64,000 nt of DNA. It comes from Nanobdellota archaeon (GTDB lineage: Archaea > Nanobdellota > Nanobdellia > Woesearchaeales > JAHIVG01). Numbering within the stretch: the first letter of the stretch is position 1; each line of letters starts with the position of its first letter. The notes beneath the pieces were generated by a model. The model saw nothing but the letters and a program-made list of their open reading frames with translations, did not search any database and had not been told where the DNA came from. Shown in pieces: positions 3,531 to 63,977 of the stretch. A program made the position numbers and the translations under genes. The stretch is from NCBI GenBank assembly GCA_018816705.1, contig JAHIVG010000079.1, positions 8,064-72,063 on the forward strand. The letters run 5' to 3'.

Positions 3531-5144
3531 ATGATTTCGGAGCCAATGGCCACCTATTCCCTGTTCGGCAAGCCCATATCCGGCCCATTCACCATACCTT
3601 CAGGCATAGTCATGACCGAGGTGCCGGTCCTTGAGCGGATAGCCAACGAGATACCAGAGATCGGCATCCTCACAACCAAGAGCATCGGGCCAGAGCCCAA
3701 GGAAGGCAACCGCGAGCCGATATTGGCCCAGTATACGCCGTTCTCGTTCATAAACGCTGTGGGCCTGGCAAACCCGGGCTGCAAAGAGTTCGCTGAGAGA
3801 CTTAAGAAAGCGAAGATTCCCAAAGATAAGTTCCTGCTCGCATCAATCTTCGGCAGTACAGAACAGGATATCAAACACGTTGCCGGAACCCTTGTCAGTC
3901 TCGTGGATGGCTTCGAGCTCAACATATCCTGCCCGCATTCCAAGCGCTACGGGCAGGCCTGCGGCCAGGACCCGGAGCTGGTAGAGAAGCTTACCCATAC
4001 AGCTGCTTCCTTCGGAAAACCGGTCGTTGTGAAGATATCACCCAATCTAGACATGGAGACAACCATCAAAGCAGCGCTCGGAGGAGGGGCTCGGGGCTTT
4101 GTAGCCATAAACACCAAAGGCCCAACAGAGTTCAAAGTAGACGGGCACGATGTGCTGAGCAACAAACAAGGCGGGGTGTCAGGCAAAGCCATACTCAACC
4201 TTGGTATAGCCTGCGTGAAGAAGATAAGGCATCTGACAGACAAGCCCATAATCGCCTGCGGCGGAATCTCAACCGCAGAAGACATCAAACGATACAAGAA
4301 AGCCGGCGCAAGCTTCTTCGGCATAGGGTCAGCCCTGGCAGGGATGAATACGTCAGAGATGAAACTGTACTTCAAGGCCCTGAAGGGGGATTTTGAGACA
4401 GGCAGTGATGCTGCGCCAAGACATTTGAAGGAAACCAACATGAAATATGTCAAGTTCAAGATAGCAGAGAGGAGGCAGCTCGCAGACAACCTAATCCTGC
4501 TGAAGCTGGACAAGAACTACGACATCCAGCCCGGCCAGTTCATATTCGCCTGGATACCCGGAAAGGGAGAGAAGCCCTTTGCCATATTCGACGACGAGCC
4601 GGCCACACTGCTGTTCAAGCCGAGAGGGCGGTTCACAGACGAGCTGGCAAAGCTTAATCCAGGAGACCCATTATATATAAGGGGGCCGTACGGCAACCCG
4701 CTCAAGATACGAGGCAAGGCATTACTGGTGGTGGGGGGAACTGCGGTGGCCGCCCTTCACCTGCTCGCCAAAAGGAAACCAGACACGTGCCTGCTGGTGG
4801 GAGGGGAGGACAAGAAGCACCTCTCGTTCCTCAAGGAATTCCCGCTGGCATGCAAGGAAGTCAGCTGTGTCTCCGACGACGGAAGCTACGGCGAGAAAGG
4901 ACTGGTGACAGACATACTCGAGAGGCATATGCTCGCATTCAAGCCAGACATATGCATCAACTGCGGCCCTGAACAGATGCAACAGAAAGCCATCGAGATA
5001 GAGAAGAAGCACATCAAGCCAGAAAACATCCTGTCCTCCATAGAATACCAGACCATGTGCGGCAACGGCATCTGCGGACGGTGCGCAACACCGGCCGGGG
5101 AGAGGAGCTGTGTGGACGGGACGTTCTTCCCTTTGAAACACTAA
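3531..5144 (+). CDS. pyrD: Dihydroorotate dehydrogenase class 1B catalytic domain fused to its electron-transfer subunit (PyrD-PyrK in a single ORF)
   Basis: The N-terminal ~300 aa are a DHODH TIM barrel (GLANPG, NISCPHS, IACGGISTAEDI). The C-terminal ~250 aa are the PyrK FAD/NAD-binding fold with a 2Fe-2S Cys cluster (QTMCGNGICGRCA...SCVDG). The ORF is continuous with no stop between the domains. The ORF track starts at 3408, but a Met at 3531 (MISEPMATYS) fits better. Confidence 0.85.
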   Translation: MISEPMATYSLFGKPISGPFTIPSGIVMTEVPVLERIANEIPEIGILTTKSIGPEPKEGNREPILAQYTPFSFINAVGLANPGCKEFAERLKKAKIPKDKFLLASIFGSTEQDIKHVAGTLVSLVDGFELNISCPHSKRYGQACGQDPELVEKLTHTAASFGKPVVVKISPNLDMETTIKAALGGGARGFVAINTKGPTEFKVDGHDVLSNKQGGVSGKAILNLGIACVKKIRHLTDKPIIACGGISTAEDIKRYKKAGASFFGIGSALAGMNTSEMKLYFKALKGDFETGSDAAPRHLKETNMKYVKFKIAERRQLADNLILLKLDKNYDIQPGQFIFAWIPGKGEKPFAIFDDEPATLLFKPRGRFTDELAKLNPGDPLYIRGPYGNPLKIRGKALLVVGGTAVAALHLLAKRKPDTCLLVGGEDKKHLSFLKEFPLACKEVSCVSDDGSYGEKGLVTDILERHMLAFKPDICINCGPEQMQQKAIEIEKKHIKPENILSSIEYQTMCGNGICGRCATPAGERSCVDGTFFPLKH

Positions 5145-14862: not shown

Positions 14863-15764
14863 ACGTGTACGACACGATCATAATCGGAGCAGGCATCTCA
14901 GGCCTGACTGCAGCCATGTACGCAGCGCGAAAGCGCATGAAGTTCGAGATCCTGTCAAATAATTTCGGCGGGCAGTTCAACATCAGCGGAGAGGTCCTGA
15001 ACTACCCTGGCATTGTCAAGACGACCGGCTTGGAGTTCTCATCAGTCATGGAGAAGCAGATGGAGTTCAACGATGTAAAGGTCAAGACAGAGATCGTGAA
15101 AAAGCTGGAGAAAATGGGCAGTAACTTCAAGGTCACATCTGACAAGGGAAGCTATGAGACACAGACAGTCATAATCTGCACGGGCTCGAACGCCCGCAAA
15201 TTGGGCGTGCCAGGCGAGCAGAGGCTGGCGAACAAGGGTGTTACCTACTGCTCAATATGCGACGGCCCTGTCTTCTCGGGAATGGACGTTGCGATAATCG
15301 GCGGCGGAGATGCTGGGCTGGAAGCAGTGGACTTCATGAAAGACCTGGCGGAAAAAATCTATCTGGTCGTCAGAGGAAAGGAATTCACGGCCCACGAATA
15401 CCTCCAGGAAAAAGTCAAGAGCAACCCGAAAGTAGAAGTGTTGTACAACACGGAGACCAAAGAGATACTCGGAGACAAGTTCGTCAACGGCCTGAGATAC
15501 GAGCAGGACGGCGAGGAGAAGACCCTGAGCGTGAAAGGCGTGATAATCGAGATAGGCAGGGTAGCGAACACAGGCATTTTCAAAGGCACGGTCCCGCTGG
15601 ACGAGGATGGCCATATCATGATCGACTGCCAGGCGAAGACTCCGGTCCCCGGGATATTCGCTGCAGGAGACTGCGCCTCTGGTCATGAATACCAATATGT
15701 CATCTCCGCAGGGCAGGGCTGCATGGCCTTGATAAAAGCAGCGAGGCATCTGGCTTCAAAATGA
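14859..15764 (+). CDS. trxB: Thioredoxin-disulfide reductase
   Basis: FAD-binding GAGISG, redox CSICDG, a second GGGDAG and the C-terminal FAAGD. Confidence 0.85.
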   Translation: MNVYDTIIIGAGISGLTAAMYAARKRMKFEILSNNFGGQFNISGEVLNYPGIVKTTGLEFSSVMEKQMEFNDVKVKTEIVKKLEKMGSNFKVTSDKGSYETQTVIICTGSNARKLGVPGEQRLANKGVTYCSICDGPVFSGMDVAIIGGGDAGLEAVDFMKDLAEKIYLVVRGKEFTAHEYLQEKVKSNPKVEVLYNTETKEILGDKFVNGLRYEQDGEEKTLSVKGVIIEIGRVANTGIFKGTVPLDEDGHIMIDCQAKTPVPGIFAAGDCASGHEYQYVISAGQGCMALIKAARHLASK

Positions 15765-15810
15765 TCAATACCAAATCTTTAAAAACTCTCAGAATTCTCT
15801 TATGGCTATT

Positions 15811-16006
15811 GCGGGGGTAGCGAAGTGGTCAAAACCTGTATAGGTGACCAGACGCGCTGGACTCAAGACGAGTGCTGAGCTGGGAAGAAAACCTTCCTGG
15901 CGATGACTTGCGTGATATCCAGTCCCTTAGTGGGTTCAGGGGTTCGACTCTTGGCGCCCGGAGCGGCAAGGCTCCGAACGTCAGTGAGAAAGTCCCTTCC
16001 CCCGCA
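15811..16006 (+). tRNA. tRNA-Leu(CAA), apparently interrupted by three introns (D-arm, anticodon loop 37/38, T-loop)
   Basis: Manual fold:
- The acceptor GCGGGGG (15811-15817) pairs with CCCCCGC (15999-16005), followed by discriminator A.
- D arm GCG-AAGTGGTCAAAA-[18 nt insert 15835-15852]-CGC.
- Anticodon stem CTGGA/TCCAG around loop CTCAAGA (anticodon CAA at 15864-15866), with a ~48 nt insert.
- Long variable arm CCC-TTAGT-GGG.
- T stem AGGGG/CCCTT around loop TTCGACT, with a ~44 nt insert.
- A TATA-like tttaaaaa lies ~30 nt upstream. Confidence 0.5.
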
Positions 16007-16020
16007 GTTTCCTTTCTGAT

Positions 16021-16335
16021 TCATAGAACAACTGAGATGATGCTCCCATAATACTCCTGAGTCCTTGCAGCAAGATAAGGCATATCCTCTGAAGGATGTT
16101 GCCTAGAAATTTCTTGGACTTCATCTATTGCATCAAAGAGGCAAGTGATGTCGTTGGGATCAATGGGGACATTCTGCCTATGGAAATCTGCGACGTGCTC
16201 TGCCATGAGAGCCAGACCGGGCGAATCCGACCTGACGCATTGATAGGACGTAATTAAAGGACTGCAATGCTCATGAACATTTATACCTACCTTGCTGGCA
16301 ATCTCCATTACGACGGCTTGATCCATTATCATCAC
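16021..16335 (-). CDS. Hypothetical protein with a His/Cys-rich N-terminal segment (possibly AhpD-like)
   Basis: 104 aa; the motif HEHCSPLITSYQC is the only recognisable feature. Confidence 0.3.
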   Translation of the reverse strand: MMIMDQAVVMEIASKVGINVHEHCSPLITSYQCVRSDSPGLALMAEHVADFHRQNVPIDPNDITCLFDAIDEVQEISRQHPSEDMPYLAARTQEYYGSIISVVL

Positions 16336-18137: not shown

Positions 18138-19003
18138 CTAGTTCACAGAATGCTCATAATATCCCCTGTACATGGATGAAGGGGTCTGCATCAAGACGTA
18201 ATCTGGATGAGTGGCGAGCAGGTGGTAGACGAGCATGTCGCTCATCGCATCGACGTCGTTTGTGAAGGCAGCATAAACATTATCATACGGGCCTTCCTGC
18301 TGCTCCAAGTAGAGCTTCTGGCCGTCAGCCAGCTCGTAAGACACCCTTTTCTCCAGCCCGTCGTAACCCTTGGATTTTTCTGTGCTCAATACTCCTTCAG
18401 GCAAAGCGTAAATATCCCTCCTCTCAGGATCTTTTGCGTCCTGGACAACAAGATAGGCCACCTTCTCTTCTATGCCTGACGGCGTATACAGCCGCTTGTT
18501 CTCTGGTTTCTCATGAGGATCATATCTAATCGCAGAGGGAGACTTTCCGTCCTTTCCGTACATCTGATATCTCCCCTCATATTTTTGCAGGGCTGGATCC
18601 TTCTTCTTGTCCTTGGGCTGAGCATAGCTCATCAGCGCAGCGACCGGATCAAGGGAGTCTGAGACATCCTTCCTTTCCTCCTGGCCCTGTTTCGGACCAG
18701 CATCACCACCCATCTCTTTCATCATCTCGAAGACGCGTGTGTTCTCCGAGTATAGCGACGAGTCCTCCTTCTCGACAGGACTCTTTTGCGGGCCGATTAT
18801 GGGTGAGCTGTGGGTTGCGAGCCAGGGCTGAGCGATCAGAAGGGCTTTCCAAGAGTTGGGTCTCGGAGCGTTCTCAGTGCCTCGATCATTCATCGGCTTC
18901 TGCCTGTCCTGTCTGAGACTCTTTTGAGTAAGAAGACCATTCAGTCCTTGGTAGCCCTGCTGCTGTCCAGGACTGTAGCTAGTATCATATGTGCTAATCA
19001 TAC
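18138..19003 (-). CDS. Hypothetical hydrophilic protein
   Basis: The ORF track runs to 19133, but that extension overlaps the repeat element. A start at MISTYD (about 19003) is more plausible. Charged and Lys-rich; no recognised motif. Confidence 0.4.
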
Positions 19004-57332: not shown

Positions 57333-57734
57333 ATGAAATTCAAGTTTTTCGACCACACTGCGGACATCAAGTTCCAAGCCTACGGAAGCAGTAAGGAAGA
57401 GGCTTTCAAGAACGCAGCCCTCGCCCTGACAGAGTTTATCATAGAAGAAGATATCAAAGCAGTGCAGGAGAAGACCATAGAAGTGGAAGGGATGGATGAG
57501 AAGCAGCTGCTGTACAGCTGGCTTGAACAGTTCCTCATCCTGCTGGACACGGAAGGTTTCCTGCTCTCAACAATAGAAGAGCTCAAGATAGACGGCAATA
57601 AGCTCAAGGCCAAGGTCAAAGGAGACTCGGCCGAGAACTACAAGCTCACAGGAGACGCGAAGGCAATAACGTATCATGACATGGAGATAACCCATGATGA
57701 CGGATGGATGGTTCAGGTGGTGATTGACATATGA
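57333..57734 (+). CDS. Archease
   Basis: Start MKFKFFDHTADIKFQAYG. It is encoded immediately upstream of rtcB with a 4-nt overlap. Confidence 0.9.
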   Translation: MKFKFFDHTADIKFQAYGSSKEEAFKNAALALTEFIIEEDIKAVQEKTIEVEGMDEKQLLYSWLEQFLILLDTEGFLLSTIEELKIDGNKLKAKVKGDSAENYKLTGDAKAITYHDMEITHDDGWMVQVVIDI

Positions 57735-59143
57735 AAATGATCTCAGAGAATGTATGGGAGATCCCCAGAGAAGGCAAGATGAGAGTCCCAGCACGGATAT
57801 TCGCATCAGACATACTCATGGAGAAGATAAAGGCAGACAAGTCCTTGCTGCAGGTCAAGAATGTTGCGGCACTGCCAGGCATCCAGAAATTCTCATTGGC
57901 CATGCCGGACGCGCACCAAGGATACGGATTCAGCATCGGCGGGGTAGCCGCATTCGACATGGATGAAGGCATAATCTCACCTGGCGGAGTCGGCTACGAC
58001 ATAAACTGCTCTGTACGGCTCTTGAGGACAGACATGATGGAGGATGACATCTCATCCAAGAGGAAACAGCTGCTGGAGGAGCTATCAAAAGAGGTGCCGG
58101 CAGGAGTCGGGCGGAGCTCCAAGATGAGGCTGTCAAGGGAAGAACTGGACGAAGTGCTCTCGACCGGGGCCAAGTGGGCAGTGAAGAAAGGCTATGGAAC
58201 AGTAAAGGACCTGAAGCACATCGAAGAAGGAGGAAGCATGCAAGGCAGACCGGACAAGGTCTCCGACCTTGCCAAGAAACGAGGCATGCCCCAAATAGGC
58301 ACGCTCGGAGCCGGAAACCACTTCCTCGAGATGCAGAAAGTCGACAAGATATTCATGCCAGAGGTAGCAGAGAGGTTCGGTATCACCAAGCCAGGACAGG
58401 TCATGGTCATGATACACTGCGGTTCTAGGGGGTTGGGCCACCAGGTGGCATCAGACTACATCAGGGCCATGGAGAACAAGTTCGGTATCTCCCATCTTCC
58501 TGACAGGGAGCTAATCAACGCCCCGATAAGCTCAGAGCTTGGCCAGGACTACTATCACGCCATGTCTGCTGCAGCGAACTTCGGCTTCGCCAACAAGCAG
58601 ATGATAACCCACTGGGTAAGACAGTGCTTCGACAAGGTCTTCGGCAGCAACGAGAACATGGACACAGTGTATGAGGTCTGCCACAACATCGCCAAGATGG
58701 AACAGCACATGATTGATGGCGAAAAGAAGAAGCTCTGCGTGCACCGCAAGGGAGCCACAAGATCATTCGGCCCGGGAAAGGAAGAGGTGCCCGAAGACTA
58801 TCGGGATCTGGGACAGCCAGTCATAATCCCAGGCAGCATGGGCACTGCATCATATTTATTGGTGGGCACGAAGAAAGCCGAAGAGATATCTTTCGGGTCG
58901 ACTGCACACGGAGCCGGGCGGGTCGCGTCCCGTTCTGAGGCTCTTCGGACAGTAAGGGGCGAGCAGGTCAAGAAAGAGCTCAAACAGAAAGGCATAGAAG
59001 TGTGGGGGCACTCATCCAAAGGCCTGGCAGAGGAAGCACCCCAGTTCTACAAGGACGTGGACGAGGTCGTCCGCGTGTCTGACGCATTAGGCATAGGAAA
59101 GATGGTGGCGAGAGTAGTTCCGTTAGCGGTGTTGAAGGGCTAA
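57731..59143 (+). CDS. rtcB: tRNA-splicing ligase RtcB
   Basis: Metal ligands and the catalytic His region (GAGNHFLE, HCGSRGLGHQV, TAHGAGR). Confidence 0.95.
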   Translation: MKMISENVWEIPREGKMRVPARIFASDILMEKIKADKSLLQVKNVAALPGIQKFSLAMPDAHQGYGFSIGGVAAFDMDEGIISPGGVGYDINCSVRLLRTDMMEDDISSKRKQLLEELSKEVPAGVGRSSKMRLSREELDEVLSTGAKWAVKKGYGTVKDLKHIEEGGSMQGRPDKVSDLAKKRGMPQIGTLGAGNHFLEMQKVDKIFMPEVAERFGITKPGQVMVMIHCGSRGLGHQVASDYIRAMENKFGISHLPDRELINAPISSELGQDYYHAMSAAANFGFANKQMITHWVRQCFDKVFGSNENMDTVYEVCHNIAKMEQHMIDGEKKKLCVHRKGATRSFGPGKEEVPEDYRDLGQPVIIPGSMGTASYLLVGTKKAEEISFGSTAHGAGRVASRSEALRTVRGEQVKKELKQKGIEVWGHSSKGLAEEAPQFYKDVDEVVRVSDALGIGKMVARVVPLAVLKG

Positions 59144-60345: not shown

Positions 60346-60436
60346 GGCAGCAACCGAGAATTGAACTCGGTCCTGGAGCTCACTGCAGCAACATGCCGCC
60401 ACAGGCTCCCATGCTAACCATTACACCATTGCCGCC
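60346..60436 (-). tRNA. tRNA-His(GTG) with an anticodon-loop intron and an encoded G-1
   Basis: Minus-strand fold:
- G-1, then acceptor GCGGCAA / TTGCTGC with one G-U pair.
- Anticodon stem GGAGC/GCTCC around loop CTGTGG|A (anticodon GTG), with an ~18-nt insert.
- T arm CCGAG-TTCAATT-CTCGG, and discriminator C.
- A TATA-like ctttataag lies ~30 nt upstream. Confidence 0.6.
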
Positions 60437-63695: not shown

Positions 63696-63977
63696 TGTGG
63701 GGAGTGCATAAGCCATCTTCTGTATTCTGCAACATTCGACTAAGCGCTTAAAGCTTGCACCGGCCAGGGCTCGCCGTTTCACCGCCATCTGGGGAACGTC
63801 TGCTGCGCAGCCCAGTCGCCTAGGTGTGCTGGAGCGTCATCCTTGGCCCAGAAGCGTTCGTTTCTGTGCGGTTGCCTCCCCTTTCGAGGACCCGTAGGGT
63901 GGCCTTTCGCGGTGGATGGACTTTCCTCAGCTACCAGGCTTCTCAGCCCGGTTACCGGCAGTTGCATGCACCCCCAC
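63696..63977 (-). ncRNA. rnpB: RNase P RNA
   Basis: The minus strand carries: P1 GTGGGGGTGC...GCACtCCCCAC; P4 5' strand GAGGAAAGTCC; ACAGAAA; GGCGGTGAAACGGCG (the CR-IV-like GGTGAAA); and ACAGAAGATGGCTTAT (the CR-V-like ...GGCUUA). A TATA TTTAAATA lies ~25 nt upstream. Confidence 0.75.

Follow-up and report, generated by a model that had tools for sequence, protein, structure and literature searches.

The 196-nt segment at 15811-16006, read on the forward strand of the 64-kb stretch of archaeal DNA analysed here (the window), is a tRNA-Leu(CAA) gene in which four exons are separated by three introns, situated in the D loop, at the canonical 37/38 position and in the T loop. It is likely to be a genuine and functional gene of a DPANN-type archaeon, with all three introns being of the bulge-helix-bulge (BHB) type and removed by protein enzymes. 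An earlier note on this DNA had proposed a tRNA-Leu(CAA) with a long variable arm and three introns at these sites, and this identification agrees with the structure of uninterrupted relatives. The perfect pairing of the acceptor ends to which that note pointed (GCGGGGG/CCCCCGC, 7 bp) is likewise plain in the sequence, the 3' strand being followed by the discriminator A73 at 16006, with no CCA encoded at the 3' end of the gene. Unconstrained MFE folding of the raw 196 nt recovers the acceptor, D, anticodon, variable-arm and T stems, along with an extra hairpin on each of the D, anticodon and T loops. The MFE is -91.4 kcal/mol as against a mean of -70.0 kcal/mol for shuffled sequences (z = -4.49), and none of the 200 shuffles is as stable.

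Upon removal of the three inserts the remaining sequence is called by ARAGORN as tRNA-Leu(caa). This spliced product is 84 nt long (22 + 16 + 32 + 14; GCGGGGGUAGCGAAGUGGUCAAACGCGCUGGACUCAAGAUCCAGUCCCUUAGUGGGUUCAGGGGUUCGACUCCCUUCCCCCGCA) and retains U8, A14, G18G19, A21, U33, G37, G53UUCGA58, C61 and A73, with every exon stem intact, a 3-bp D stem and a 7-nt anticodon loop bearing CAA at positions 34-36. Its variable region of 15 nt (UCCCUUAGUGGGUUC) includes a 3-bp stem, and the arm is nearly identical to that of related tRNA-Leu genes. In the raw DNA ARAGORN makes no tRNA call at 15811-16006, be it on the whole window or on the locus with and without the intron options, and Rfam does not report the locus either at the gathering threshold or at E <= 10 over 15700-16100. 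The ARAGORN check envisaged by the earlier note was thus positive for the spliced form and negative for the raw locus; the silence of both tools on the latter is a limit of the tools and not counter-evidence to the gene. The locus is confirmed as a real tRNA-Leu(CAA) gene, far from a chance resemblance. A decoder of UUG codons is needed in this genome, given that UUG accounts for 60 of the 486 Leu codons in ten ORFs.

The exon-intron borders (Table 1) were defined by a MAFFT alignment of the raw locus with seven metagenomic tRNA-Leu genes (five of them uninterrupted) out of the 22 that share exon 1. The uninterrupted genes show gaps of 19 nt after GGTCAA, 49 nt after CTCAAG and 44 nt after TTCGAC, and in this alignment the four exons match them in order and almost base for base. 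The insert in the D loop, previously put at 18 nt, is therefore corrected to 19 nt by the alignment together with BHB scoring, and by the same evidence the insert at 37/38, whose site was rightly placed, measures 49 and not ~48 nt; the ~44 nt estimated for the T loop hold exactly in the alignment. For intron 2 the register 15869-15917 is equivalent in that it yields an identical spliced product. This 38/39 register was set aside as an equivalent description only, since its central helix reaches 3/4 pairs at the cost of the register of the outer and inner helices. A covariance model built solely from 11 uninterrupted relatives (R1) recovers the exons of the locus in pieces only, with a match at 15896-15962 that spans exon 3 (20.9 bits, E = 6.7e-5) and another of 6.3 bits that comprises exon 1, a 20-nt insertion and exon 2. 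Other kinds of interruption were also considered. Self-splicing group I or II introns are of at least 200 nt with a ribozyme core, whereas the inserts are only 19, 49 and 44 nt, and no intron family is recovered by Rfam at E <= 10 over 15700-16100. A split or permuted tRNA gene was rejected in view of the four exons being colinear on one strand within 196 nt and behind a single promoter-like box.

Table 1. Coordinates in the window of the tRNA-Leu(CAA) gene, its parts and flanking elements, and of the genes for tRNA processing
Feature	Positions	Strand	Description	Evidence
tRNA-Leu(CAA) gene	15811-16006	+	196 nt; four exons and three introns	
TATA-box-like element	15777-15785	+	CTTTAAAAA; 26-34 nt upstream of mature 5' end	Sequence reading
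Exon 1	15811-15832	+	22 nt; acceptor 5' strand, U8, D-stem 5' strand, D loop to A21	
Intron 1	15833-15851	+	19 nt; D arm, ~21/22	Alignment and relaxed BHB
Exon 2	15852-15867	+	16 nt; D-stem 3' strand, G26, anticodon-stem 5' strand, C32-G37 with CAA	Alignment
Intron 2	15868-15916	+	49 nt; canonical 37/38	Alignment
Variable hairpin in intron 2	15879-15901	+	9 bp	Comparison of L001 with the window
Exon 3	15917-15948	+	32 nt; A38, anticodon-stem 3' strand, variable arm, T-stem 5' strand, U54-C59	Alignment
Intron 3	15949-15992	+	44 nt; T loop, 59/60	Alignment
Decoy 3' half-site in intron 3	15975-15981	+	CGAA-CG^U	BHB scoring
Exon 4	15993-16006	+	14 nt; U60, T-stem 3' strand, acceptor 3' strand, A73	Alignment and sequence
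T-rich tract	16008-16017	+	TTTCCTTTCT; just past the 3' end	Sequence reading
Archease gene (RtcB cofactor)	57333-57734	+		Pfam PF01951, E = 1.1e-37
RtcB tRNA-splicing ligase gene	57731-59143	+		Pfam PF01139, E = 1.1e-167
tRNA-His(GUG) gene	60346-60435 (intron 60381-60398)	-	18-nt intron at 37/38	Textbook hBHBh' motif
Archaeal RNase P RNA	63700-63975	-	Pre-tRNA 5' maturation	Rfam RF00373, 155.9 bits, E = 3e-44

The relatives used above were recovered by scanning JGI metagenome contigs with a 20-mer from exon 1 (15813-15832, GGGGGTAGCGAAGTGGTCAA), which gave 24 loci, 22 of them archaeal tRNA-Leu genes. Most of these genes begin with the same 22 nt as exon 1, the three that differ doing so at position 2 only, and the D arm is uninterrupted in every case, reading either GGTCAAACGC or GGTCAAACGT. 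A D-loop intron is thus absent from the whole set of 22, in which no gene is interrupted three times either. Several do possess introns at other sites. The tRNA-Leu(CAA) genes of L052, the closest relative, and L056 differ in their spliced form from the 84-mer of the window at ~5 positions and carry an intron of 26 nt at 37/38, with a central helix of 4/4 pairs in L052. The tRNA-Leu(CAA) of L067 has a 20-nt intron in the anticodon arm and a 54-nt intron at 59/60 with a perfect BHB, while L068 and L074 have a 48-nt intron in the anticodon stem, with a central helix of 4/4 in L068.

The splice junctions were scored with a BHB geometry comprising an outer helix, a 4-bp central helix, 3-nt bulges cut after the second base (marked ^) and an inner helix, which was validated on the 18-nt intron of the tRNA-His gene of the same window (outer helix 5, central helix 4/4, inner helix 4). 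A strict scan of the locus with this motif recovers the D-arm intron only. Its central helix (GGUC with GACC) has 4/4 pairs with pair probabilities of ~1.0, flanked by the bulges AA^A and AG^A and an inner helix of 4 bp (ACCU with AGGU); it has no contiguous outer helix and hence belongs to the relaxed HBh' type of BHB. Intron 2 has an outer helix of 6 bp, an inner helix of 5 bp and the 3-nt bulges AG^A and AU^A, which together give the canonical spacing, with a central helix (CUCA with CGUG) of 2/4 pairs (C-G, U.U, C-G, A.C). In the case of intron 3 the outer helix is the 5-bp T stem, the bulges are AC^U and AG^U, the central helix (UUCG with AGAA) has 3/4 pairs with G57.A as the mismatch, and the inner helix consists of 1 bp followed by 6 bp past a 1-nt bulge. 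A 3/4 match at the T-loop junction is close to the chance expectation (roughly 0.15). Relative to the MFE, the conformers that would form the BHBs cost 6.6 kcal/mol more for intron 2 and 6.8 kcal/mol more for intron 3, and their pairs have probabilities of ~0.01. The expectation that a BHB can be drawn at each junction is therefore borne out in part only: the D-arm intron has a good relaxed BHB, and the introns at 37/38 and 59/60 have the geometry but weak central helices. On account of these weak helices, and of 3/4 being near chance, it is the alignment and not the motif that defines the borders of introns 2 and 3.

Intron 3 also contains a second potential 3' half-site, CGAA-CG^U, which pairs 4/4 with the UUCG at positions 54-57, or 5 bp counting G53-C15979, and has no outer helix. 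This decoy precedes the productive T-loop site by 12 nt, and its use would leave a T loop of 19 nt. It resembles, as CCGAACG^U, the sequence in which the intron of L067 truly ends (CCGAAUG^U), and it could have been left behind by an insertion or duplication of 12 nt. Two further sequence relationships within the locus are compatible with chance. The segment 15863-15873 (UCAA-GAC-GAGU, anticodon loop and start of intron 2) can pair with 15947-15954 (ACUC-UUGG, A58-C59 and start of intron 3) so as to enclose the 5' splice site of intron 2 in a perfect helix-bulge-helix, for which the chance is estimated at ~0.07 and the ensemble probability is 0.0. An 8-nt direct repeat (AGTCCCTT) occurs at 15921-15928, at the junction of the anticodon stem and the variable arm, and again at 15991-15998, where intron 3 meets exon 4; ~0.6 repeats of this length are expected by chance in the region.

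The locus is present in three independent assemblies, namely the window, L001 (Logan SRR6514274, 3953-4148) and L076 (ENA ERZ27247128, 3857-4052). L076 departs from the window only at 15837, in intron 1, and at 18587. Over 6.9 kb L001 has 13 differences from the window, 12 of which fall in introns 1 and 2 (15837, 15875, nine between 15881 and 15897, and 15913) and none in the exons. The absence of exon substitutions says little on purifying selection, because the assemblies are almost identical outside the introns. Intron 2 stands out with 11 substitutions in 39 nt (15875-15913) as against ~1 in the other 6.8 kb. Nine of these are in its 9-bp hairpin, all nine pairs of which are kept in both alleles: there are two double and two single pair-preserving changes (G-C to A-U, G-C to U.G, U.G to C-G and A-U to G.U) and three changes in the loop. 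That all six stem substitutions preserve pairing has a likelihood of roughly 0.02 by chance, and the clustered hairpin changes argue for selection on the structure of the transcript. As for the clustering itself, either a small patch of recombination or very fast evolution of the intron is possible.

The tRNA-Leu(CAA) gene occupies nearly all of a 256-nt gap between convergent genes, and none of the ORFs overlapping it reaches 60 aa, all of them being shorter. The TATA-box-like element upstream of it probably acts as promoter; TTTAAAA or TTTATAA boxes are found ~23-37 nt upstream of the tRNA-His gene of the window and of many related tRNA-Leu genes (L052, L055, L057, L067, L072). Judging from its composition, the T-rich tract just past the 3' end is a possible archaeal terminator at which transcription might end.

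With regard to the enzymes of tRNA splicing, the earlier note had placed the splicing endonuclease as well as RtcB and archease in the window. The latter two are indeed encoded there, recovered by Pfam in adjacent genes in which the start of RtcB overlaps the archease stop by 4 nt, while the endonuclease part of the claim is not supported: no EndA domain was found in the 64-kb window by Pfam in the 66 ORFs of at least 70 aa, nor by NCBIfam in 10 ORFs lacking a Pfam match, and a motif regular expression also came up empty. The window further encodes an archaeal RNase P RNA and the tRNA-His(GUG) gene mentioned above. That gene was itself missed by ARAGORN and by the Rfam run at the gathering threshold, and was recovered in the E-value mode of Rfam with 47.6 bits (gathering score 29). 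The textbook intron of this gene implies the existence of an EndA gene outside the window.

The window encodes an archaeal TBP, MCM, Cdc6 and NAC in addition to archease and the archaeal RNase P RNA. A synteny search with the thioredoxin-reductase-like gene upstream of the locus gave 50 loci, with DPANN MAGs being nearest; the closest relatives of its product, at 58-72% identity, come from MAGs labelled Woesearchaeota, Nanoarchaeota, Altiarchaeota and 'uncultured archaeon'. We read the host as a DPANN-type archaeon, a placement that is not rigorous. The tRNA-Leu gene was found downstream of the thioredoxin-reductase-like gene in none of the 50 synteny loci, and synteny thus yields no orthologues of it.

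The retrieved contigs also include several other disrupted or duplicated tRNA sequences. In L023, one of the synteny loci and from a related MAG, a 208-nt tRNA-Ser(CGA) gene at 4583-4790 (- strand) carries a 94-nt D-loop intron and a 30-nt intron at 59/60, both with perfect BHBs. The same contig has a 117-nt tRNA(CAU) gene with a 44-nt intron at 3662-3778 (+ strand), directly downstream of the TrxR gene, and a second copy of the 3' half of this tRNA(CAU) lies ~130 nt further on (around 3886-3908). Extra tRNA 3' halves 50-200 nt beyond intact genes also occur in L036, a Nanohaloarchaea MAG (~2143-2380 on the - strand and 3699-4105 on the + strand), and in the groundwater contig L072 (downstream of 1415); across these two contigs they belong to tRNAs for Gly, Arg and Leu. 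By analogy, they are reminiscent of the att-site duplications left by integrated elements. Scans of viral contigs gave matches limited to the tRNA-Leu(CAA) of another archaeon, with a different D arm and the same T arm and acceptor 3' end, on four IMG/VR contigs (L077-L080). On three of these contigs the gene is at or close to an end, on L079 it is internal, and the copy in L078 is partial. These positions suggest that in some archaea tRNA-Leu(CAA) serves as a target of integration.

The structure and borders of the gene, the conserved exons, the structure-preserving variation of intron 2 and the presence of RtcB, archease and RNase P RNA are established by the results above, whereas how the gene is transcribed, where its transcript is cut and in which order it is spliced are inferred. 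In the pathway that we envisage, the TATA-like promoter ~30 nt upstream would give rise to a single precursor of ~200 nt, whose ends would be trimmed by RNase P and a 3' nuclease. The splicing endonuclease, encoded elsewhere in the genome, would cut the six exon-intron junctions, and RtcB would join the four exons with the help of archease, both being encoded in the window, into the 84-nt tRNA. Following addition of CCA, this tRNA would read UUG codons. Several observations count against such a functional gene: EndA was not detected in the 64-kb window; the central helices of introns 2 and 3 have 2/4 and 3/4 pairs as against 4/4 in relatives, with the BHB conformers being disfavoured; and the 3' half-site proposed to be used is preceded, at a distance of 12 nt, by CGAA-CG^U, which is the better of the two. 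A bolder reading, which we consider rather improbable, is that the EndA of this lineage accepts largely mismatched central helices (2/4 and 3/4) and ignores the decoy; this would mean an unusually relaxed or tRNA-body-guided selection of splice sites in a DPANN archaeon. Separately, and at the same low probability, the hairpin of intron 2, which evolves fast and keeps its structure within an otherwise clonal population, would fit an excised intron with a role or a selective pressure of its own. Such an intron might persist as a stable circular RNA, or be targeted by recombination or involved in conflict with mobile elements.

Alternatively, the same features might be those of a decaying tRNA-Leu(CAA), in which the BHBs at 37/38 and 59/60 have been damaged by mutation and by a 12-nt insertion near the 3' junction of the T loop. 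Its transcript would be mis-spliced, and UUG would be read by tRNA-Leu(UAA) or by another copy. The central helices that are perfect in L052, L067, L068 and L023 and degenerate here, the ancestral-looking half-site CCGAACG^U 12 nt upstream of the exon, which has its counterpart in L067, and the unfavourable energy of the BHB conformers all fit decay. It is harder to reconcile with the integrity of all conserved tRNA positions and exon stems, the kept promoter-like box, the retention of the gene in three assemblies and the exact canonical spacing of outer helix, bulges and inner helix at the 37/38 junction. Moreover, the six pairing-preserving substitutions in the hairpin of intron 2, improbable by chance, argue for continuing selection on the transcript, and the decay of the gene is on the whole unlikely.

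The gene might also be functional and processed in a non-standard manner. Intron 3 could be removed in two steps, with CGAA-CG^U being used first and the 12-nt remnant later, or splicing could be ordered or assisted by pairing across introns. The perfect 4/4 half-site within intron 3 (5 bp with G53) would serve the two-step route, for which there is a precedent in archaeal tRNAs with closely spaced introns that are removed iteratively (PMC8450103), and the helix-bulge-helix that the start of intron 3 can form at the 5' splice site of intron 2 would serve the cross-intron route. Yet, the intermediate expected after a first step folds into no better BHB, its T arm being a CUC/GAG triloop hairpin; the cross-intron pairing has the chance and ensemble values given above; and the same arrangement is absent from all relatives. 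Such processing is accordingly highly doubtful. A last alternative, that the locus is not a tRNA gene and reflects a chance resemblance, another structured RNA or an intergenic repeat, could appeal to the silence of ARAGORN and of the Rfam tRNA model on the raw sequence. It is effectively refuted by the relatives, the alignment and the call on the spliced product: the exons match uninterrupted tRNA-Leu genes in order and nearly throughout, the full cloverleaf folds with z = -4.5, and R1 matches the exons.

The reading as a functional tRNA-Leu(CAA) gene with three BHB-type introns can be placed among other disrupted tRNA genes. Within the window, the tRNA-His(GUG) gene belongs to the same genome and would have the same need of EndA and RtcB, and differs in having a single 18-nt intron with a textbook motif. 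Exon 1 is identical in L052, L056 and L067; L052 further shares the anticodon stem and the intron at 37/38, and L067 the intron at 59/60, while the tRNA-Ser(CGA) of L023 has the combination of D-loop and 59/60 introns. In these genes the introns number one or two and their central helices are perfect (4/4), whereas the gene of the window has introns at all three sites, two of them with degenerate BHBs. With respect to DPANN lineages more generally, Kaneta et al. 2018 (PMC5829648) describe a raised level of tRNA gene disruption, predict disrupted genes that had escaped detection, and link the disrupted genes to EndA variants with an L3 loop. The present locus is similar to the cases in that study in being a disrupted tRNA gene in the same superphylum, a comparison made with its general statements.

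Since genes of this kind escape both ARAGORN and the Rfam tRNA model, tRNAs that seem to be missing from DPANN genomes can be artefacts of annotation and need not have been truly lost. For work on the specificity of DPANN splicing endonucleases and on the evolution of tRNA introns within populations, concrete substrates are offered by the degenerate BHBs and by the hypervariable hairpin, which preserves its structure. The closest known parallel is provided by archaeal tRNA genes with up to three introns, which occur chiefly in Thermoproteales such as Pyrobaculum calidifontis (Sugahara et al. 2008, as relayed in PMC4033280 and PMC8450103). According to these accounts, the locus resembles the Thermoproteales genes in having three introns in one tRNA gene, in the use of D-arm, T-arm and 37/38 sites, in a relaxed BHB, in the processing by EndA and RtcB that is proposed here, and in being overlooked by standard tRNA finders. 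Unlike in Thermoproteales, the host is DPANN-type with 52% G+C and not a hyperthermophilic crenarchaeon, and two of the central helices are mismatched. Transposition of introns, which is described in Thermoproteales, has left no sign here: blastn-short searches against the window and all retrieved loci found no copies of the three introns elsewhere. What is unusual about the locus is confined to the imperfect pairing of two central helices, the decoy site and an intron hairpin that is hypervariable yet keeps its structure. Three endonuclease-type introns per gene, the most extreme interruption known for a tRNA and documented mainly in Thermoproteales before, are also present in DPANN; the layout itself is already known from other archaea, and this gene of a DPANN-type genome equals the highest number of introns published so far.
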